8,906 nucleotides of DNA, taken from positions 1 through 8,906 of the IMG/VR virus record IMGVR_UViG_2690316276_000009. One strand, given 5' to 3'. The translations under genes and the position numbers were made by a program. The notes below the pieces were generated by a model. It did no database searches and was not told the origin of the DNA. It saw nothing but the letters and a program-made list of their open reading frames with translations. Origin of the DNA: a virus (lineage: Duplodnaviria > Heunggongvirae > Uroviricota > Caudoviricetes). Shown piece by piece: positions 1 through 8,906 of the stretch (position 1 is its first letter; each line of letters starts with the position of its first letter).

Positions 1-267
1 CCATGCCAGTTTCTTTTAACAAACTCCCCGCAAACCAGACAACAGTCAACCGCCTGAATTGTGAAGTATTTAAAAATTTCTCCCGCTAACTGATACCCGG
101 CTAACAGTCTGGCGTTTTCTTTTTCAGCAACGGGAAAGCAACAACCACCACACCCGCCACCAGCACACCGTCAGCCAGCACTGACATTATCCGGCTGCTG
201 CAATGCCATTCACAAAAACAGTAAGCAATCACTTTTTACCGTAACAGGTGATAATCCAGATATGTAT

Positions 268-621
268 CTACCCCAGATGAGTAATCCGAAGTTCATCCAT
301 ACCACAGGTCCTGGCTATTCTGTTGTACTCCTGAACAAGAGCAAATAATTCTGAATTAGCAACCATGAACTCATCGCAAACCCTCTGTATAGCATCACTA
401 TTCAGAATAATAACGTCTCTTCCCGAAAGACGATCAGGAGTACAGAACAAAACTGTCAAACGGCTGAAGGCCTTTGCTCGTGCTGCATTGACTATATCAA
501 TACGCTGCCTAAGGATGAAACACCCCGACGCCTCATCAATATTCACTCTACCCACACCATATGAATGATAAATATTTAATGCTGAAAAAACCATTAGACC
601 GTATAACAAACACTCAATCAA
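268..621 (-). CDS. hypothetical protein (117 aa from TTG; 108 aa if it starts at the first ATG)
   Basis: Open frame in the supplied ORF track. The 5'-most codon is TTG and I see no convincing Shine-Dalgarno before the first in-frame ATG. The region is AT-rich and lies downstream of the tRNA in the late-operon direction. No family recognised. A plus-strand ORF (365-568) overlaps it and cannot be excluded. Confidence 0.25.
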   Translation of the reverse strand: MIECLLYGLMVFSALNIYHSYGVGRVNIDEASGCFILRQRIDIVNAARAKAFSRLTVLFCTPDRLSGRDVIILNSDAIQRVCDEFMVANSELFALVQEYNRIARTCGMDELRITHLG

Positions 622-731
622 TACTTAACAGAACTTTTATTTTTGACAAACATAAAATATTTTCAACAATATCCTGAGCCAGGTATATTTCAGTATAAGG
701 CTCTGCCGGAAGGAATCTGGAAGAATGAATA

Positions 732-808
732 TGGCGCGCTGTACTGGATTCGAACCAGTGACCGATTGCTTAGAAGGCAATTGCTCTGTCCGGCTGAGCT
801 AACAACGC
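732..808 (-). tRNA. tRNA-Arg (anticodon UCU, reads AGA)
   Basis: Minus-strand sequence GCGTTGTTAGCTCAGCCGGACAGAGCAATTGCCTTCTAAGCAATCGGTCACTGGTTCGAATCCAGTACAGCGCGCCA folds by hand as a 77-nt cloverleaf: 7-bp acceptor stem with one G-U pair, D arm GCTC/GAGC, anticodon stem ATTGC/GCAAT with loop CTTCTAA (anticodon TCT), T arm ACTGG-TTCGAAT-CCAGT, encoded CCA. Lambdoid and Stx phages are known to carry rare-codon tRNA genes (ileZ/argN/argO) downstream of Q. Confidence 0.85.
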
Positions 809-885
809 TGAATACCGATAATGGACCGCCATCGGGGACCCGCCCCCGCACCAACAACCCTGTTATCATGTCGTCTGCTCTTCCN

Positions 886-930
886 NNNNNNNNNNNNNNN
901 NNNNNNNNNNNNNNNNNNNNNNNNNNNNNN
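886..930. other. assembly gap (45 N)
   Basis: Run of 45 N directly in the sequence. The flanks are not contiguous biology: a methyltransferase ORF runs into the gap from one side and a tRNA sits on the other. Confidence 0.95.
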
Positions 931-1023
931 CAGGTCAACAGAATTTTCGGGTAACGACCGGATAAATTCCAGGCAGTCGGCGTTGATTAACTCACAACTG
1001 GATATTTTTACAGCATTAAGCAT
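931..1023 (-). CDS. DNA methyltransferase, N-terminal fragment truncated by the gap
   Basis: The minus-strand ORF starting at the ATG at 1021-1023 encodes MLNAVKISSCELINADCLEFIRSLPENSVDL and then enters the N run. The xxDCLExxxxLPxxSVDL stretch is the typical N-terminus of N6-adenine/N4-cytosine DNA methyltransferases, immediately preceding the DPPY motif, which would lie in the gap. Confidence 0.45.
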
Positions 1024-1117
1024 GGATCATTAAGCCTGTCTCTGATAGGCTCATTCTGCTTTTGCGCAAAGCAGTGGGCCTGAGGTTTGCTTGTGAACCC
1101 AACGCATGAGCAGATGG

Positions 1118-1144
1118 CTGGTGGGTGCCCCTAACACCCACCAG
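1118..1144. repeat. perfect 10-bp inverted repeat (CTGGTGGGTG-N7-CACCCACCAG)
   Basis: Read directly from the sequence: 10-bp arms with a 7-nt spacer CCCCTAA, no flanking T/A run. Sits between the terminator at 1161-1187 and the methyltransferase start. Confidence 0.6.
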
Positions 1145-1160
1145 CCGCCCATTTACCACA

Positions 1161-1187
1161 AATAAAAAAGCCTTCACTGCGGAAGGC
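1161..1187 (-). terminator. candidate rho-independent terminator after the 65-aa ORF
   Basis: Minus strand: stem GCCTTC / GAAGGC with a 6-nt loop, followed by TTTTTTATT. The hairpin overlaps the stop codon of the 1174-1371 ORF. Confidence 0.55.
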
Positions 1188-1371
1188 GTCTGTAACAACC
1201 GAACTGATAGTCTGCCAGACCCGCCATAACCAGCTGGGTCAGTATTAACTGGCAGCGTTCGCGTGAAAGGTAAGTATTCTGCGCTATCTCCCCGACTGTC
1301 GCCGGTTCGGTAACGCTTAATTCATTAAACACCACTCTGGCGGTTTCTGTCATATCCTGCTGTTTTAGCAT
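1174..1371 (-). CDS. small HTH-like protein (65 aa), hypothetical; possibly a PapI/FaeA-like winged-helix regulator
   Basis: ATG start preceded by AAAGGAAAAG (Shine-Dalgarno-like). The segment ATVGEIAQNTYLSRERCQLILTQLVMAGL has the pattern of a helix-turn-helix. Bracketed by terminator-like hairpins on both sides. The family assignment is a guess. Confidence 0.45.
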   Translation of the reverse strand: MLKQQDMTETARVVFNELSVTEPATVGEIAQNTYLSRERCQLILTQLVMAGLADYQFGCYRRLPQ

Positions 1372-1490
1372 GTCTTTTCCTTTTCCGGTTAACGTGACAC
1401 ACCAATAACTCTTGTCGAAAAAGCCAGCAAGCTGAAAGACAGGTATTCACCGCCACCAGCGCGTTTACTGTACTGACGCGATTTCAGTCA

Positions 1491-1515
1491 TAAAAAACCC
1501 GCTCGGCGGCGGGTT
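1491..1515 (-). terminator. candidate rho-independent terminator about 40 nt downstream of Q (tR'-like position)
   Basis: Minus strand: AACCCGC-CGCCGA-GCGGGTT hairpin followed by TTTTTTAT. In lambdoid phages the late promoter pR', the Q-utilisation site and terminator tR' lie just downstream of Q. Confidence 0.6.
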
Positions 1516-1554
1516 GTAGAAACTCTTCTAACGTCAGGCATAAAACGCCCATCG

Positions 1555-2409
1555 TTATGACGAATTTACCACAGATTCCGGAAAAATCAACCTAGTTACC
1601 TTTTTTAACTGCCGCTCAGCCCATGCTTCTTCAATATCAAACCGGGTCACCAGCGCATCATAGAATTTCTTAACTGTTTTTTCCCATGACGCGCGTGTTA
1701 TCTGGTTTGTCACCTCGCATATAGCATTAAATGCCTCCGTTGATGGTAGTCTTTCATAGCCACGACCACCACAACGCTGGCAGTCTCTGATAACAGGCAT
1801 ACCACGTTTTACCGACTCTTCACGATGAATGGCGACACCACGCCCACGGCAATCCTTACAGGCGGTGGAAACCTCACCCTTTCCGCCACACTCCGGACAG
1901 GCAACTTTTACCACCTCCCTGACTTTTTTCCATTCTTCCCAGTAAGACGGATACACACCTTTCGTACACTTTGCCCATACCGGCGGCTTACCATCCGGAT
2001 ACTGGACCTTGTTTGTAAAAACTACGCTTTCAATAAATTTTTCCCCATAGCAACAAGGGCACTGCTTTTTACTCGCTGCGCTGCGGGCATAATCCTCAAA
2101 AGCGTACGAAGCCATAATGCGCATCACTACCGGTTTTATTTCTGCCGGAAGTTTTCTCAACGCCGCCACACGATCGCACCGACTGAGTGCATAATCTGCC
2201 AGTAATTCTGTTGCCCGCGCCCTGTCATTCATACTGATGCCCATTTTCCCCAGGAACGCAGAAAACCCCATCTCAGCCCGATTCTGTGTCATGCCCTGCG
2301 CGGCCATCACATCAGTGATACTCAGCGCATCTTTTGACGTTGAGGCCGATGCATCGGTCAGGCAAGGGGATTTTGGGGAGTAGTATTTCGGTAAATCTTC
2401 CAGTTTCAT
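1555..2409 (-). CDS. Q: antitermination protein Q (lambda Q family), 284 aa, with expanded Cys-rich zinc-binding region
   Basis: The N-terminus (YSPKSP...TDVMAAQGM...ND) and C-terminus (KTVKKFYDALV) align by eye with lambda Q (YSPKSP...TDVMAAMGM...; VKPLYDALV). The central region carries CPCC plus three CxxCxGxG-type motifs (CPECGGKG, CKDCRGRG, CQRCGGRG). The start ATG overlaps the rusA stop (ATGA). Confidence 0.85.
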   Translation of the reverse strand: MKLEDLPKYYSPKSPCLTDASASTSKDALSITDVMAAQGMTQNRAEMGFSAFLGKMGISMNDRARATELLADYALSRCDRVAALRKLPAEIKPVVMRIMASYAFEDYARSAASKKQCPCCYGEKFIESVVFTNKVQYPDGKPPVWAKCTKGVYPSYWEEWKKVREVVKVACPECGGKGEVSTACKDCRGRGVAIHREESVKRGMPVIRDCQRCGGRGYERLPSTEAFNAICEVTNQITRASWEKTVKKFYDALVTRFDIEEAWAERQLKKVTRLIFPESVVNSS

Positions 2410-2780
2410 TTTTTGACCTGCTCTTCATGCATTATGGGGTAAATCTTCACCCCCAGACGTCCACCAGATACTGGCTGACCACGAACGATATTGATTTCAT
2501 CAAACTGCTCATCGTCCATTAACACTCCCGCATGTGTCAGTGCATCCAGTGGTGCTTTCAGGATATTGTCCAGGTCACGACGGCGCTTATCCGGTGGCTC
2601 TGCAATAATCTTTATCGCCAGTCTTCCGGACAGGCTTAATTTCAGTCGCTGCTGACGGACAATAAGCGCCACATCCCGGCGATAACGCTCACCGGCTTTT
2701 GATACAAAATATGTGTTGTCACGACGTCGCCAGTAAGTATTCACCGTCGGCGGATAAGGTAAAATAAACTCATGGCGCAT
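2406..2780 (-). CDS. rusA: crossover junction endodeoxyribonuclease RusA (Holliday junction resolvase), 124 aa
   Basis: PDKRRRDLDNILKAPLDALTHAGVLMDDEQF matches the conserved RusA catalytic region (RRRDLDN ... D). Sits immediately upstream of Q as in DLP12-type and other lambdoid prophages. Stop overlaps the Q start. Confidence 0.85.
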   Translation of the reverse strand: MRHEFILPYPPTVNTYWRRRDNTYFVSKAGERYRRDVALIVRQQRLKLSLSGRLAIKIIAEPPDKRRRDLDNILKAPLDALTHAGVLMDDEQFDEINIVRGQPVSGGRLGVKIYPIMHEEQVKK

Positions 2781-2881
2781 CAGCGCAGCACCTCCTGCAC
2801 CAGTTTTTCAAACTTTCCGACTCTGGTTTCCAGCTCTGCCACACAGTCCACCAGCTCATCTACTGCTTTCTGTGCGCGATG
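2780..2881 (-). pseudogene. 3' fragment of the small ORF found intact at 3999-4241, cut at the N at 2882
   Basis: 2780-2881 is identical to 3999-4100; the match ends exactly at the N. Confidence 0.6.
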
Positions 2882-2882
2882 N

Positions 2883-3628
2883 AATTTCTTAACTGTTTTT
2901 TCCCATGACGCGCGTGTTATCTGGTTTGTCACCTCGCATATAGCATTAAATGCCTCCGTTGATGGTAGTCTTTCATAGCCACGACCACCACAACGCTGGC
3001 AGTCTCTGATAACAGGCATACCACGTTTTACCGACTCTTCACGATGAATGGCGACACCACGCCCACGGCAATCCTTACAGGCGGTGGAAACCTCACCCTT
3101 TCCGCCACACTCCGGACAGGCAACTTTTACCACCTCCCTGACTTTTTTCCATTCTTCCCAGTAAGACGGATACACACCTTTCGTACACTTTGCCCATACC
3201 GGCGGCTTACCATCCGGATACTGGATCTTGTTTGTAAAAACCTCGCTTTCAATAAATTTTTTTCCGTGACAGCAGGGGCACTGTTTTTTGCTCGCCGCGC
3301 TACGGGCATAATCTTCAAACGCATACGAAGCCATAATACGCATCACTGCCGGTTTTATTTCTGCCGGGAGTTTTCTTAACGCCGCCACGCGATCACACCG
3401 ACTGAGTGCATATTCTGTCAGCAATTCTGTTGCCCGCTCTCTGTCATTCATACTAATGCCCATTTTCCCAAGGAACGCAGAAACCCCCATCTCAGCCCGA
3501 TTCTGTGTCATGCCCTGCGCGGCCATCACATCAGTGATACTCAGCGCATCTTTTGACGTTGAGGCCGATGCATCGGTCAGGCAAGGGGATTTTGGGGAGT
3601 AGTATTTCGGTAAATCTTCCAGTTTCAT
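2883..3628 (-). pseudogene. antitermination protein Q paralogue, 3' end missing and fused in frame across the N at 2882 to the preceding fragment
   Basis: The track ORF 2780-3628 encodes Q residues 1-250 and then ...KTVKKXHRAQKAVDELVDCVAELETRVGKFEKLVQEVLR, which is the C-terminus of the 3999-4256 ORF. The true Q C-terminus (FYDALVTRF...) is absent. Confidence 0.65.
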
Positions 3629-3999
3629 TTTTTGACCTGCTCTTCATGCATTATGGGGTAAATCTTCACCCCCAGACGTCCACCAGATACTGGCTGACCA
3701 CGAACGATATTGATTTCATCAAACTGCTCATCGTCCATTAACACTCCCGCATGTGTCAGTGCATCCAGTGGTGCTTTCAGGATATTGTCCAGGTCACGAC
3801 GGCGCTTATCCGGTGGCTCTGCAATAATCTTTATCGCCAGTCTTCCGGACAGGCTTAATTTCAGTCGCTGCTGACGGACAATAAGCGCCACATCCCGGCG
3901 ATAACGCTCACCGGCTTTTGATACAAAATATGTGTTGTCACGACGTCGCCAGTAAGTATTCACCGTCGGCGGATAAGGTAAAATAAACTCATGGCGCAT
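3625..3999 (-). CDS. rusA: RusA Holliday junction resolvase (second copy, protein identical to 2406-2780)
   Basis: Protein identical to the 2406-2780 copy; same overlap with the downstream Q start. Confidence 0.85.
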   Translation of the reverse strand: MRHEFILPYPPTVNTYWRRRDNTYFVSKAGERYRRDVALIVRQQRLKLSLSGRLAIKIIAEPPDKRRRDLDNILKAPLDALTHAGVLMDDEQFDEINIVRGQPVSGGRLGVKIYPIMHEEQVKK

Positions 4000-4241
4000 C
4001 AGCGCAGCACCTCCTGCACCAGTTTTTCAAACTTTCCGACTCTGGTTTCCAGCTCTGCCACACAGTCCACCAGCTCATCTACTGCTTTCTGTGCGCGATG
4101 CTTCGCCTGCATCAGTTCCCGAAGCGCGGGTACCATATCTTTACGGATAGCGTCTTTTGTTATGCCCGTTTTTTCGAGTTGTTCAGCATGACGCAGCATT
4201 TCCTGCGCGTGTTTACGCAATTGTTCAGGGGTAAAAGTCAT
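3999..4241 (-). CDS. small phage protein, hypothetical (80 aa from the ATG at 4241; track ORF 85 aa from TTG at 4256)
   Basis: First codon of the track ORF is TTG; the first ATG gives MTFTPEQLRKHAQEML.... The N-terminus resembles those of the 55-aa and 114-aa ORFs at 8142-8650. Stop overlaps the rusA start by 1 bp. Confidence 0.5.
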   Translation of the reverse strand: MTFTPEQLRKHAQEMLRHAEQLEKTGITKDAIRKDMVPALRELMQAKHRAQKAVDELVDCVAELETRVGKFEKLVQEVLR

Positions 4242-4467
4242 TGTCTGGTTGTTCAAAAGAAACGCTCCATCTTACTGCTGTCAGTTCGTTTATTACTGTA
4301 TCTGCGCGGATTGCCGGGCTTCATGGGAGTGGAAAGCACCCGTGCACTTTCCTGGTCCACAGGCAGAAAATGTCCGTAGACTGGCCCCCTGAATCTCCAG
4401 ACAACCAGTATCACTTAAATAAGTGATAGTCTTAATACTAGTTTTTAGACTAGTCATTGGAGTACAG

Positions 4468-4833
4468 ATGATTGATGTCTTAGGGCCGGAGAAACGCAGA
4501 CGGCGTACCACACAGGAAAAGATCGCAATTGTTCAGCAGAGCTTTGAACCGGGGATGACGGTCTCCCTCGTTGCCCGGCAACATGGTGTAGCAGCCAGCC
4601 AGTTATTTCTCTGGCGTAAGCAATACCAGGAAGGAAGTCTTACTGCTGTCGCCGCCGGAGAACAGGTTGTTCCTGCCTCTGAACTTGCTGCCGCCATGAA
4701 GCAGATTAAAGAACTCCAGCGCCTGCTCGGCAAGAAAACGATGGAAAATGAACTCCTCAAAGAAGCCGTTGAATATGGACGGGCAAAAAAGTGGATAGCG
4801 CACGCGCCCTTATTGCCCGGGGATGGGGAGTAA
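4468..4833 (+). CDS. insC: IS2 transposase OrfA (InsC), 121 aa
   Basis: [54 protein letters not shown]... is the IS2 InsC sequence. The A6G slippery heptamer AAAAAAG at 4785-4791 is the known -1 frameshift site that produces the InsCD fusion. Confidence 0.85.
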
Positions 4834-5197
4834 GCTTAGTCAGCCGTTGTCTCCGGGTGTCGCGTGCGCAGTTGCACGTCATTCTCAGACGAACCGATGA
4901 CTGGATGGATGGCCGCCGCAGTCGTCACACTGATGATACGGATGTGCTTCTCCGTATACACCATGTTATCGGAGAGCTGCCCACGTATGGTTATCGTCGG
5001 GTATGGGCGCTGCTTCGCAGACAGGCAGAACTTGATGGTATGCCTGCGATCAATGCCAAACGTGTTTACCGGATCATGCGCCAGAATGCGCTGTTGCTTG
5101 AGCGAAAACCTGCTGTACCGCCATCGAAACGGGCACATACAGGCAGAGTGGCCGTGAAAGAAAGCAATCAGCGATGGTGCTCTGACGGGTTCGAGTT
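4791..5197 (+). pseudogene. insD: IS2 transposase OrfB (InsD), N-terminal about 135 codons only
   Basis: [41 protein letters not shown]... matches the InsD N-terminus. The reading frame leaves IS2 sequence at the N at 5198 and continues as the antisense of the Q fragment. Confidence 0.75.
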
Positions 5198-5198
5198 N

Positions 5199-5431
5199 CA
5201 CCGACTGAGTGCATATTCTGTCAGCAATTCTGTTGCCCGCTCTCTGTCATTCATACTAATGCCCATTTTCCCAAGGAACGCAGAAACCCCCATCTCAGCC
5301 CGATTCTGTGTCATGCCCTGCGCGGCCATCACATCAGTGATACTCAGCGCATCTTTCGACGTTGAGGCCGATGCATCAGTCAGGCCGGGGGATTTTGGGG
5401 AGTAGTATTTCGGTAAATCTTCCAGTTTCAT
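5199..5431 (-). pseudogene. antitermination protein Q, N-terminal fragment (about 77 codons), third copy
   Basis: Encodes MKLEDLPKYYSPKSPGLTDASAS...TEYALSR, matching Q copy B except for C16G, then stops being Q at the N at 5198 where IS2 sequence begins. Confidence 0.7.
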
Positions 5432-5808
5432 TTTTTGACCTGCCCTTCAAGCATTATGGGATAAATCTTCACCCCCAGACGTCCACCAGATACTGGCTGA
5501 GCACGAACGATATTGATTTCATCAAACTGCTCATCGTCCATTAGCAACCCCGCATGCGTCAGCGCATCCAGCGGCGCTTTCAGAATATTGTCCAGGTCAC
5601 GGCGGCGCTTATCCGGTGGTTCTGCAATAATTTTTATTGCCAACCTTCCGGACAGGCTTAATTTCAGCCGCTGCTGGCGAACAATAAGCGCCACTGCCCG
5701 GCGATAACGCTCCCCGGCTTTTGATACAAAATATGTGCTGCCACGACGACGCCAGTAAGTGTTCACCGTCGGCGGGTAAGGTAAAACAAATTCTATGCGC
5801 TCGGTCAT
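5428..5808 (-). CDS. rusA: RusA Holliday junction resolvase, divergent paralogue (126 aa)
   Basis: Same RusA core (RRRDLDN...DDEQF) with a different N-terminus (MTERIEFVLPYPP) and several substitutions. Start abuts the stop of the DUF968 gene. Confidence 0.85.
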   Translation of the reverse strand: MTERIEFVLPYPPTVNTYWRRRGSTYFVSKAGERYRRAVALIVRQQRLKLSLSGRLAIKIIAEPPDKRRRDLDNILKAPLDALTHAGLLMDDEQFDEINIVRAQPVSGGRLGVKIYPIMLEGQVKK

Positions 5809-6867
5809 TTATGCTTTCCACTTCAGAACACCCGAATTTCTCGCGTGCATTAAAAAACGAATCAGCAACAACAGCTGACTGCCGTGTTTCTCTTCAAAAT
5901 CTTTTACTCCGGCATGTAGTTCGTTACGGCATTTACGGCATAACGGAATAACAAACAAATCATCAGCCTTTGTTCCCATCCCTCCCAGTCCATGACCAAT
6001 GATGTGATGCGGATCATCTGCCTGATTGCCACACGTCATGCATTTCTGCGTTTTTACCCAGCGCGTGTATACAGGCATCTCTTCCCGTTGTGATTTCTGG
6101 CGCTGGAGATACTGAGCCGGTGACTCCGGATCAACGGCAATGCTGACCACCGTCTTTTCCTGTGGTGGGTTCTGTTGCTGGTGGACGTGAGGCAGTAACG
6201 CAATATTTTTTGTGCGCTGCTTCAGTATGCTGGTGGCTGTCTGCTCTCCCGGTATGATGTCGCTTTCACTGTACACAGAGCGAATTTTTTCCGCACGCAA
6301 CCCCAGCGAACGACGTAATACCGCTTCCGGTAGCGCGTCCGCCACCTGATTGCGGACCGCCCACCAGGATAATTCAGCCAGAGATAATTCACGCTCCTGC
6401 GTACCGCTTATTGCGTGACCGATGACGTCAATCATCCATGCTGACAGGTTTTGATGAGCAAGTTGCTCGAGTGATTCGGATGTCTGGTCACGCAGCTGGT
6501 TGTCGCAGTGCCAGCACAACACCATTGCGCCGGTACCATAACGGTGAATGACGGTTTCGCTGTGATGATAATCGCCGTGTGGCCACTGGCAGGATTTAAT
6601 ATGGCGCAACAGCCAGTCAGACAATGCACCAGCACCACCAGCAGCACGAATCACCCGTGCGTTACTGAAAAACGGCAGCAATGTTTTGTCTTCCACCAGC
6701 GGCTGGCGAGCGGCAGGAACGACCCCGGACGGCAGATTACGCATGCTTTTTGGTTCCGGCTCCACCAGTATTCTGCCGTTATGGAATGCTGACATTGATT
6801 CACGGCCTGGCTTAACGATAACCAGACCGAGTTCCGGTACCAGAACAGGTCGAAGTAATACCCGCAC
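5809..6867 (-). CDS. DUF968-type phage protein with C-terminal HNH-like Cys/His motif (YdfU-like), 352 aa from GTG
   Basis: GTG start preceded by GGAGGT at good spacing; alternative ATG at 6795. C-terminus CMTCGNQADDPHHIIGHGLGG...LCRKCRNELH looks like an HNH/zinc-finger nuclease motif. Position upstream of the Q-side genes parallels ydfU next to quuQ in the Qin prophage. Family assignment from recall, not a search. Confidence 0.6.
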   Translation of the reverse strand: MRVLLRPVLVPELGLVIVKPGRESMSAFHNGRILVEPEPKSMRNLPSGVVPAARQPLVEDKTLLPFFSNARVIRAAGGAGALSDWLLRHIKSCQWPHGDYHHSETVIHRYGTGAMVLCWHCDNQLRDQTSESLEQLAHQNLSAWMIDVIGHAISGTQERELSLAELSWWAVRNQVADALPEAVLRRSLGLRAEKIRSVYSESDIIPGEQTATSILKQRTKNIALLPHVHQQQNPPQEKTVVSIAVDPESPAQYLQRQKSQREEMPVYTRWVKTQKCMTCGNQADDPHHIIGHGLGGMGTKADDLFVIPLCRKCRNELHAGVKDFEEKHGSQLLLLIRFLMHARNSGVLKWKA

Positions 6868-6868
6868 A

Positions 6869-7147
6869 TTACCTCCAGATCCGTTGCTGGAATGTGCGGG
6901 ACGGACGCGTTGGCCGTTCGGAGTAAGGGAGCCTGACGGAGATTATCCAGTGACGGTAGTCGAGGCTAAGGGCTTTTTTAACCTCGCATCCGCGCCTGCG
7001 GTAACACTGAATGAGCCATTCGGCCTGTTCTTCAGTGCATGGGGGATGCTGGTACCAATCAGATTTAAATGCGTGAGAGCGCCGCCCGTGCCTGCTGGCA
7101 AAGACGGCTGAATTATCAGAATTGTGTAGTCTGGAATTTTGCGCCAT
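6869..7147 (-). CDS. hypothetical small basic protein (92 aa)
   Basis: ATG with GGAG about 9 nt upstream. Stop lies 1 nt before the GTG start of the DUF968 gene. No family recognised. Confidence 0.4.
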   Translation of the reverse strand: MAQNSRLHNSDNSAVFASRHGRRSHAFKSDWYQHPPCTEEQAEWLIQCYRRRGCEVKKALSLDYRHWIISVRLPYSERPTRPSRTFQQRIWR

Positions 7148-7213
7148 CGGCTTTCTCCGGTGGCACAGTGTTACTCAACAGGGGTTCAGCCCTGCGCTGA
7201 ATTGTAGATGAAT

Positions 7214-7474
7214 TCACTCATCTTCAAAAGCAGAAAAACCAGCCTTAATCCCAGCTTCTTTCAGAGACGGCAACGATGTGACAAATTCATTTGCACGCGA
7301 AATAAAACCATCCGTCACAAGCCCATCCACAAAATGAATTAACGCAGCTCCACTCTTCCTTTGTTGAGACTGTAAACATTTAATACGGCAGTGGCTGACA
7401 ATAGCGCCATTCTCAACGCGCACAGTATAGAGGCCATCTTCACTAAAAATTTCACGTAATTCTTCGATTTTCAT
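7214..7474 (-). CDS. hypothetical protein (86 aa from ATG; track ORF starts 1 codon earlier at TTG)
   Basis: ATG preceded by GGAAGGA. Lies between hok and the DUF968 gene, where rem lies in Qin; that is a synteny-only guess and I do not recognise the sequence. Confidence 0.4.
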   Translation of the reverse strand: MKIEELREIFSEDGLYTVRVENGAIVSHCRIKCLQSQQRKSGAALIHFVDGLVTDGFISRANEFVTSLPSLKEAGIKAGFSAFEDE

Positions 7475-7595
7475 CAACAGAATCCTTCCAGATAAATAGC
7501 ACTCCCCTGTTCGGGGTCCATCCCTCTTCTCCCTGCGCGCTACTTAAGTATTTTTGATTCTATTCCGGCACCATCTAAAACTTCAAACGCGTTGA

Positions 7596-7626
7596 AAATA
7601 AAAACAAAAACCCGCCGAAGCGGGTT
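7596..7626 (-). terminator. rho-independent terminator about 70 nt downstream of hok
   Basis: Minus strand: AACCCGC-TTCG-GCGGGTT (UUCG tetraloop) followed by TTTTTGTTTTTATTTT. Confidence 0.6.
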
Positions 7627-7694
7627 AAGTGTGGGTGCATTGAGGATGCCTGACCCATCAGAGGTGGCGAGGGATTTCTCCCCCGCCTGGTCTC

Positions 7695-7850
7695 TTACTC
7701 CTCAGGTTCGTAAGCTGTGAAGACAGCGACCTCCGTCTGGCCGGTTCGAATTCGTACCTCGCAGAGGTCTTTCCTCGTTACCAGTGCCGTCACTATGACG
7801 GTTAAACAGATGACGATCAGGGCGATTAACATCGCCTTTTGCTGCTTCAT
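7695..7850 (-). CDS. hokD: Hok/Gef-family membrane toxin, HokD/RelF-like (51 aa)
   Basis: MKQQKAMLIALIVICLTVIVTALVTRKDLCEVRIRTGQTEVAVFTAYEPEE matches HokD/RelF as I recall it and has the Hok signature (hydrophobic helix, then TRK.LCE.R). AAGGAG lies 9 nt before this ATG. The track ORF extends 19 codons upstream in frame to an ATG at 7907. Confidence 0.85.
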   Translation of the reverse strand: MKQQKAMLIALIVICLTVIVTALVTRKDLCEVRIRTGQTEVAVFTAYEPEE

Positions 7851-8141
7851 AGCCTGCTTCTCCTTGCCTTTCGGCACGTAAGAGGCTAACCTAGATTTGC
7901 CGTTCATAGATTGAGCCTCAGATTAATGTTAAGCGTCTTGCCGGACGCGTAATGTTAACTGGGGCTTTTCTCTATCTGCCTTTTGGTGTTCATGCCTGAG
8001 ACAGATAGCCTCAAGCACCCGCTGCAATTCTACTTAACTCTCCTTTTCCCGCAAACCGTTTTTATCCCCAGCGGCAAATCGAATACACCACCAGCGCCAC
8101 CGCCATCGCAATTCCTACCGTTGTTAATGCTTCAGGCCAGG

Positions 8142-8486
8142 TCATCGTAAAATATCCTCCACGCTTATCAGTCCGTTCCGCTCCAGATAACTCATCGCCT
8201 TATCCGGTAATTTGCAGTCTGGCTTCGCTTTTCTCAGTTGCCAGGTTAACTGCTTTACCAGCATGGTTAACTCATCGACCAGACGCTGATATCCCACTGG
8301 TTTGTATTCATGCAATTTACCGGCTGGCTCTGCTGCCAGCGATACCAGTGCGATTTCCAGAACAGCAATATCCATCTTATATGTGCGGATGATGTCATGG
8401 TCGATTGTGCCCGGTATGCACAGTCTCTGTGCTTCAATAGTCTCCTCTGCGTGAGCTATTAACTGCTCTCTGGTAAAAGTCGTCAT
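8142..8486 (-). CDS. hypothetical protein (114 aa), downstream member of a coupled pair
   Basis: ATG overlaps the stop of the upstream 55-aa ORF (ATGA). N-terminus MTTFTREQL... and the internal [10 protein letters not shown] parallel the 55-aa partner (MTTITKERI..., [10 protein letters not shown]). No family recognised. Confidence 0.5.
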
Positions 8487-8650
8487 GCCGTAGCCCCTTC
8501 TTGATATTTTTCAAACCAGAACACAACCGGCTCTGCTTCCAGCGATGCCAGCGCAATCCGTGCCAGTTCCATTTGTTCACCACGGGTAAGCCCGTTTTCA
8601 AGCGGGTTTTTAATGAACAATTCAATACGTTCTTTGGTAATAGTGGTCAT
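8483..8650 (-). CDS. hypothetical small protein (55 aa), upstream member of a coupled pair; absent from the ORF track
   Basis: Hand translation of the minus strand: [55 protein letters not shown]. Perfect AAGGAG 7 nt before the ATG at 8648-8650; stop TGA overlaps the ATG of the 114-aa ORF. Confidence 0.5.
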
Positions 8651-8660
8651 GTGTTACTCC

Positions 8661-8906
8661 TTAACCCGCAGTGCTTTCAACTGATGAGGGGAACAAAATC
8701 TTTTCATCAAACCCTGCATTCATATCATGAACAGCAACACACCAATCCATCGACGAACGATTATCAAGAGCCTCCATGATTTCATCCATGCGGCGTAGGT
8801 CATACAGGTAAATGCTTTTATCGCCAATGGTGTAAAAGCCAATTTTTTTCGGTGATGGATGAGGTGTACTGGCAATAGCGGACACTACCATTTGTTCTTT
8901 TTTTAA
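8661..8906 (-). CDS. hypothetical protein, 5'-partial (frame open to the window edge)
   Basis: Track ORF 8661-8891 has no in-frame stop between 8891 and the window end, so the gene probably starts outside the window. Stop TAA at 8661-8663, just before the Shine-Dalgarno of the 55-aa ORF. Confidence 0.35.
   Translation of the reverse strand, partial: LKKEQMVVSAIASTPHPSPKKIGFYTIGDKSIYLYDLRRMDEIMEALDNRSSMDWCVAVHDMNAGFDEKILFPSSVESTAG

Follow-up and report, generated by a model that had tools for sequence, protein, structure and literature searches.

The protein encoded at 5809..6867 on the minus strand of an 8,906-nucleotide stretch of phage DNA (the window; positions 1 to 8,906 of the IMG/VR virus record IMGVR_UViG_2690316276_000009, Caudoviricetes) carries arginine at residue 314, a position that in its relatives holds a histidine predicted to bind metal directly. 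The coding sequence is 352 codons long, begins with GTG, ends with TAA, and was assigned from the open reading frame list, Pfam, and PHROG 96 to the YdfU (DUF968) family. The explanation that we favor, and that we consider fairly probable rather than secure, is that this family consists of HNH nucleases of phage recombination or replication, and that the copy found in Shigella sonnei is a catalytically impaired remnant of such an enzyme. Arg314 is the sole unusual feature of an otherwise ordinary, catalogued prophage gene. Both the DUF968 protein and its family are already known, and the HNH assignment and the RusA and Q neighbors were published in 2017. The additions made here are small: the S. 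sonnei H314R allele, an Asp in place of the Asn of the motif throughout the family, a counted synteny, and an N-terminal two-thirds of the protein that lacks a known fold. The discovery value of the finding is correspondingly little.

Results

The DUF968 Protein and Its Family

A sequence-only reading of this DNA had called the protein DUF968-like and proposed a Pfam search. When run, that search matched residues 160-344 to DUF968 (PF06147) with 210.3 bits against a gathering cut-off of 27.8 (E=2.6e-62), the match spanning profile positions 1-169 of 171. PHROG 96 ('HNH endonuclease') aligns over all of its positions, 1-334 of 334, with residues 1-349 (E=1e-162), and 30 diverse homologues align end to end with the protein, N-terminal domain included; NCBIfam has no model for it. 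Databases list an identical protein under the name 'DUF968 domain-containing protein [Shigella sonnei] / MULTISPECIES [Shigella]', and it occurs in 3132 blocks of an assembly collection and on at least 1000 contigs that carry the name Shigella sonnei. Of the 5426 complete Escherichia coli genomes, 4549 contain related DNA, the best identity being 93.7%; in the best-identity genomes the gene is annotated 'DUF968 domain-containing protein', and the top match is a frameshifted pseudogene. The earlier description of the family as poorly characterized agrees with our literature search, which found no functional or experimental study of DUF968/YdfU proteins.

The start codon of the DUF968 open reading frame is the GTG at 6867-6865 on the minus strand, preceded after a 4-nt spacer by a Shine-Dalgarno GGAGG (6872..6876, minus strand). 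Between the two lies the TAA stop codon of an upstream open reading frame of 92 amino acids (6869..7147, minus strand; phrog_1212, E=7e-35; no Pfam family), so that its end overlaps the ribosome-binding region of the DUF968 gene; the junction reads GGAGGTAATGTG. Close alleles retain the GGAGG and a GTG at the same position, and more divergent homologues start at the same aligned residue with either GTG or ATG. At the other end of the gene, the stop codon TAA (5811-5809) abuts the ATG of rusA at 5808 to give TAAATG. The rusA gene (126 amino acids; 5428..5808, minus strand) matches Pfam RusA at E=1.5e-16 as well as phrog_34, and its end overlaps by 4 nt the start of a gene for antiterminator Q, whose 5' part (5199..5431, minus strand; direct repeat family D1) runs to a single N at 5198 and is matched by the N-termini of two full Q copies. 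The sequence-only reading had described a GTG start with a strong GGAGG and a stop codon abutting rusA, both of which are found as described, and its suggestion that the gene is expressed together with rusA holds at the level of translational linkage. Because their starts and stops overlap or abut, the 92-aa open reading frame, DUF968, rusA, and Q can be read as a translationally coupled string.

Measured against 24 E. coli and Shigella prophage alleles, the dN/dS of the DUF968 gene is 0.08-0.19, with a median of 0.13. This median and the Pfam match of E=2.6e-62 identify the open reading frame as a real gene, and the codon comparison indicates that the gene and its family are under purifying selection.

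The C-Terminal Domain

The peptide that the sequence-only reading had singled out as an HNH or zinc-finger nuclease module, CMTCGNQADDPHHIIGHGLGG...IPLCRKCRNELH, comprises residues 276-318 of the DUF968 protein. It contains an HNH/beta-beta-alpha-metal motif, placed from the family alignments (C276-x2-C279, H287-H288, D303, C310-x2-C313, R314, and H318; 5914..6042, minus strand), within a C-terminal domain that was delimited with AlphaFold, Foldseek, and BFVD to residues 243-352 (5812..6141, minus strand). The Pfam family HNHc_6 scores 28.0 bits here against a cut-off of 26.6. In an AlphaFold2 model of the full-length protein, built from a 31-sequence alignment and having a mean pLDDT of 86, the core of the domain is predicted to consist of a strand at 285-288, a second strand at 306-309, and a helix at 311-319; modeled alone, residues 243-352 gave a pLDDT of 91 and a pTM of 0.81. 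The full-length model retrieved nothing from the PDB with Foldseek better than E=2.6, whereas the domain-only model gave HNH matches, the best being EcoKMcrA (E=0.019, probability 0.85), followed by Cas5-HNH, type I-E HNH Cascade, CBASS Cap5, IscB, and phage P1 Ref (TM 0.49 both ways), and, further down, by Gme HNH, Cas9, VcaM4I, and TagI. HNH domains make up most of the top 50 PDB matches, none of which falls below E=1e-3. In BFVD, stand-alone phage proteins of about 110 amino acids match the domain at E=1e-7.

His-Me finger nucleases have a near-invariant catalytic His where strand 1 ends, and their metal ion is bound directly by an Asn or His from the opening turn of the helix; the residue immediately preceding the catalytic His and helix positions +4 or +8 often contribute further ligands (PMC5714182). 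Mapped on the family alignment, this rule falls on H287-H288, H314, and H318. H288, at the end of strand 1, is at least 90% conserved in the family alignment and invariant in the alignment of the C-terminal domain. The Asn of the H-N-H motif is absent from the family alignment at the aligned place, which is taken instead by D303, an Asp invariant in the family and found there in YbcO as well. Two CxxC pairs, C276/C279 and C310/C313, flank the finger, and all four cysteines are present in the window protein; homologues always keep C276, sometimes lack C279, and often have His in place of C313. From their placement we take these pairs to act as zinc knuckles, and the C-terminal approximately 110 amino acids are predicted to form a zinc-knuckle-stabilized His-Me finger (HNH). 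The module claimed by the sequence-only reading is upheld as a fold, by HNHc_6, AlphaFold, Foldseek, and the published rule (PMC5714182), but not as an intact site: since R314 replaces the metal-binding His, the quoted motif is a damaged HNH site. The conservation of the catalytic His and Asn, which had been proposed as a check on the claim, proves to be mixed in the same way, as H288 is at least 90% conserved, the place of the Asn is held by the invariant D303, and residue 314 is His in the family but Arg in the window copy.

The Arg314 Allele

Residue 314 is encoded by CGT (5926..5928, minus strand), where homologues have CAT for His. His occupies the position in 173 of 176 motif-bearing homologues retrieved, and Arg in none of them. 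A set of 80 species-level genomes across Enterobacterales gave 78 readable loci, each with His at this residue, and 314 alone among the 352 positions carries a residue that none of the 85 close homologues of the same length has. Sequencing error can be ruled out as the source of Arg314, given that the allele is shared by two IMG/VR contigs, which nevertheless differ from the window by a 250-bp indel, and by thousands of S. sonnei assemblies. Each of the eight complete S. sonnei chromosomes examined has an unbroken DUF968 open reading frame, and S. sonnei also has a paralogue in which the His is retained. Because position 314 is a direct metal ligand by the family rule, the window copy has probably lost that ligand and would have impaired nuclease activity or none.

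The N-Terminal Region

The N-terminal domain, residues 1-160 (6388..6867, minus strand), is modeled with a pLDDT of about 80-96, and its first 135 residues match the unannotated phrog_11007 at E=5e-67. The region belongs to no Pfam family. PDB sequence searches with the N-terminal 190 amino acids and with a full-length profile found no match to it at E<=10, and Foldseek found no match to the domain in either the PDB or BFVD, the matches in BFVD being confined to the C-terminal domain. The N-termini of DUF968/HNHc_6 proteins from Listeria and Staphylococcus have been described as Orf-like (Curtis et al. 2014, PMC4118853). A likeness of the window protein to lambda Orf (NinB; PDB 1PC6) was sought at its N-terminus and yielded no NinB Pfam match at E<=0.01 and no PDB or Foldseek match.

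A cluster of Cys and His residues in this region (C93, H101/H102, C118, C121, and D122; 6502..6591, minus strand) was recognized in the alignment and is modeled as a beta-hairpin plus helix, with AlphaFold2 strands at 105-110 and 113-118 and a helix at 119-125. C93 and C118 are invariant in the family alignment, W119 and D122 are at least 90% conserved, and positions 101 and 121, judged by eye, are mostly Cys or His. The cluster is plausibly a structural zinc site, and residues 93-122 may constitute a zinc-binding module that has not been described. We considered whether the segment CQ...YHH...LCWHCDN, which resembles the C-terminal HNH, reflects an internal duplication, and rejected the idea, as BLASTP gave E=2.9 and hhalign of the two domain alignments a probability of 0.8%.

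Several unusual domain combinations were set aside as well. Fusions of the N-terminal domain to tail-fibre, portal, capsid, and J-protein pieces were judged to be chimeras created by deletion in decayed prophages or assemblies; six database proteins (P0127, P0146, P0160, P0174, P0176, and P0226) join the first 150-300 YdfU residues to such pieces, most likely through deletion in decayed prophages or through misassembly. Such YdfU chimeras could mislead surveys of domain architecture. C-terminal domains joined to Dam or MT-A70 fragments were likewise judged to be deletion chimeras and uninformative. A fusion of the C-terminal domain to a LexA DNA-binding domain also exists in databases.

Gene Neighborhood

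On complete S. sonnei chromosomes the order of genes is hok, rem, a gene of 90-92 amino acids, DUF968, rusA, Q (273 amino acids), and an N6/N4 methyltransferase gene, and IS elements flank the prophage on both sides. A wider sample of 80 loci was drawn from one-genome-per-species data with a 10-sequence alignment. Directly downstream of DUF968 (n=78), the open reading frame belongs to the Q families PF06530 in 38 cases, PF03589 in 17, and PF06323 in 6, to DUF1133 in 16, and to RusA in 2. A RusA profile located rusA on the same strand within 3 kb at 51 of the 80 loci, upstream of DUF968 in 48 and downstream in only 3, these last being E. coli, S. flexneri, and E. albertii records. Approximately 16 of the 48 upstream rusA genes end at the DUF968 start; most of the others are separated from it by one gene, which encoded a KilA-N or Rha/ANT protein at all eight loci sampled. 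In four metagenomic relatives, DUF968 lies just ahead of a late regulator and lysis genes, and the placement of rusA is variable or rusA is absent. The linkage of rusA and DUF968 is frequent and loose, and the order seen in the window is the rare one. The earlier placement of the gene directly upstream of rusA is correct for this DNA and does not extend to the family, in which that order occurs at 3 of 80 loci and the usual arrangement has rusA upstream and Q downstream.

Ahead of the other two rusA copies in the window lies, instead of DUF968, a coiled-coil protein represented by its C-terminal part (3999-4256 and 2780-2881, minus strand; phrog_2565, E=1e-32). Sister prophages therefore have different genes in the place upstream of rusA.

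The Remainder of the Window

The window resembles a scaffold chimera, with a run of 46 Ns at 885-930 and single Ns at 2882 and 5198, exactly at repeat junctions. It holds three near-identical rusA-Q modules (1555-2780, 2780-3999, and 5199-5808; 95-100% identity), where complete S. sonnei chromosomes and the IMG/VR contig L003 have a single module between DUF968 and the downstream region. A fragment of an IS3-family transposase gene (4423-5197, plus strand) comprises an HTH_Tnp_1 orfA and the beginning of orfB (HTH_21); it runs up to the N at 5198, where it abuts the truncated Q gene. A tRNA-Arg gene (anticodon TCT; 732-808, minus strand; ARAGORN and Rfam) lies beyond the 46-N run, which separates it from the third rusA-Q module.

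On the other flank of DUF968, a 250-bp segment (7137-7386) is present in the window and at loci L012, L076, and L077; L002 and L003 lack it but are 99.7-100% identical otherwise, and in these two contigs the 250-bp deletion fuses a rem-like open reading frame to the 92-aa open reading frame. Further upstream is a hok/sok type I toxin-antitoxin system (7609-8020, minus strand), with a Hok/Gef open reading frame at 7695-7907 (Pfam E=3e-23) and sok RNA at 7845-8020 (Rfam, 112 bits). Past hok/sok come a strong terminator-like hairpin (7626-7609) and then a promoter-like site (7586-7557) ahead of the rem-like open reading frame.

Discussion

The gene is located in the late part of the nin region in a degraded lambdoid prophage of S. 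sonnei. We suggest that the proteins of this family are Mg2+- or Mn2+-dependent DNA endonucleases acting on intermediates of phage replication or recombination, in a role that would resemble that of lambda Rap (NinG) or of YbcO from phage 82 and DLP12, encoded in the same genomic slot. H288, at the end of strand 1 and preceded by H287, would serve as the general base; in the family, His314 in the first turn of the helix and His318 four residues further on would provide metal ligands; and the N-terminal domain of approximately 240 amino acids may supply substrate recognition. The Arg314 copy is then most likely a catalytically impaired remnant, at best still able to bind DNA, a reading that draws on the Arg at a ligand position, on the fixation of the allele in S. 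sonnei, and on the state of the prophage, itself a remnant riddled with IS elements. Against this stands the fact that the DUF968 open reading frame is intact in thousands of S. sonnei genomes, which could mean that a function has been retained. S. sonnei is a young clone, however, and its age tempers that argument. The two histidines that remain, H287 and H318, might hold a metal ion. The family may in addition have a non-catalytic function that Arg314 leaves unharmed, since the subfamily resembling PdcB of phage P1 is without the catalytic His and keeps the rest of the protein.

Retention of activity is the alternative that most needs weighing, unlikely as we think it to be. The S. sonnei protein would still be an active nuclease whose metal is held by H287 and H318 and whose Arg314 contributes to neutralizing the transition state, the substitution being neutral or changing metal preference only. 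The general base H288 is indeed intact, and so are two of the three His residues predicted as ligands; the open reading frame is unbroken in the eight complete S. sonnei chromosomes examined, and there are His-Me finger nucleases, namely Ref, Vvn, and endonuclease I, that add an Arg to the active site (PMC5714182). Yet the supplementary Arg of Ref and Vvn is situated in the omega-loop and does not replace a ligand, the residue corresponding to 314 coordinates the ion directly (PMC5714182), and natural variation gives no example of the exchange elsewhere, His being the residue at each of the 78 species-level loci and in 173 of the 176 motif-bearing homologues, and Arg the residue in none of them. 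More improbable in our view is the proposal that the main role of these proteins is to bind DNA or protein for late-gene activation or anti-repression, the HNH serving as a structural zinc finger. A Q antiterminator family lies directly downstream in most of the 78 loci, a KilA-N or Rha/ANT gene was found between rusA and DUF968 in 8 of 8 loci sampled, PdcB-like members without HH and H314 keep the four cysteines, D303, and P308, and the C-terminal domain also occurs fused to a LexA DNA-binding domain. The order of genes in the nin region, however, is largely a product of history and does not prove function, and outside the PdcB-like branch the residues HH, D, H, and H are kept across Enterobacterales, which would be hard to explain without catalysis. 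We give less credence still to the idea that Arg314 marks a selected, catalytically silent form in S. sonnei whose N-terminal Cys/His domain binds branched DNA and so modulates RusA or host recombination, the N-terminal domain being, more broadly, a new module for recognizing junctions or other DNA structures.

The sequence-only reading had raised the possibility of a nuclease directed at host or competitor DNA, and a weapon or defense enzyme acting on host, competitor-phage, or plasmid DNA is not a fanciful idea for a domain that is common in toxins and defense systems (PMC5714182) and whose Foldseek neighbors include McrA and Cap5. We nonetheless find it very unlikely. PADLOC-DB 2.0 has no family matching the DUF968 protein, the 92-aa open reading frame, or RusA at E<=0.01; the gene has no adjacent immunity, sensor, or modification gene; its position in an ordinary nin region, beside recombination and antitermination genes, is fixed across the 80 loci; and in 4549 of 5426 complete E. 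coli genomes it is ordinary prophage cargo. Many siphophage HNH proteins work with terminase, and the DUF968 protein might by that general precedent be an HNH partner of terminase in cos cleavage or packaging, like gp74 of HK97. This we regard as the least credible reading of all: the gene belongs to the nin (early-right) operon and precedes Q and the lysis genes, not lying beside terminase or portal genes, and the HNH proteins that accompany terminase are small and have a single domain.

An impaired YdfU-family nuclease thus remains our preferred account of the S. sonnei protein, and it has some practical consequences. Annotation pipelines that label the Arg314 copy 'HNH endonuclease' should flag the missing metal ligand. 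The family as a whole is very common in E. coli and is under purifying selection, and should make a cheap target for biochemistry.

Comparison with Known Systems

The DUF968 and DUF1364/YbcO families were placed together in group 7 of the His-Me finger nucleases by Jablonska et al. (2017, PMC5714182), who named YdfU of the Qin prophage, listed RusA, Q, and antirepressors as DUF968 neighbors, and proposed a role in recombination like that of NinG and Ref. YdfU of E. coli K-12 Qin (PF06147) is of the same family as the window protein and shares its full-length architecture, the motif CxxC...HH...D...CxxC-H...H, and the RusA and Q neighbors; the window allele differs from this family in having Arg at metal-ligand position 314.

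YbcO of DLP12 and phage 82 (DUF1364; PDB 3g27) is the best PDB sequence match of the window protein, a marginal one at E=0.84 with a single sequence and E=0.12 with a profile, and the alignment pairs the positions of H288, D303, and H314. In DLP12 it lies directly upstream of rusA. YbcO has 96 amino acids and consists of the finger only, without the N-terminal region of approximately 240 amino acids found in the DUF968 protein, and its His-Me finger is assigned to the same published group (PMC5714182).

The Orf-HNH proteins of Listeria and Staphylococcus (HNHc_6; PMC4118853) share with the window protein a zinc-finger HNH match that is just above the cut-off, and for them, too, a role in phage recombination has been proposed; a likeness to lambda Orf is reported for their N-terminus (PMC4118853), whereas that of the window protein has no NinB or PDB match. 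Lambda Rap (NinG) is a branch-specific endonuclease with a His-Me finger of group 24 (PMC5714182), which is encoded in the nin region shortly before Q and acts on recombination intermediates. It belongs to a different Pfam family (PF05766), to which the window protein has no match, and its domain organization differs, so the likeness that we infer between the two is one of function, by analogy.

Phage P1 PdcB is a distant full-length homologue, with about 25% identity over residues 32-348, and is found in a plasmid-prophage, not beside Q or rusA. Three rows of our alignment (P0200, P0205, and P0223), with 28%, 27%, and 25% identity, were taken as PdcB-like on that low identity; they have lost HH, H314, and mostly H318, and have kept the Cys pairs, D303, P308, and the N-terminal Cys cluster. 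Because of these losses, PdcB-like members look to be a naturally non-catalytic subfamily. The H314R allele that occurs naturally in S. sonnei and the PdcB branch of P1, which lacks these His residues, together offer a ready-made set of active-site variants.
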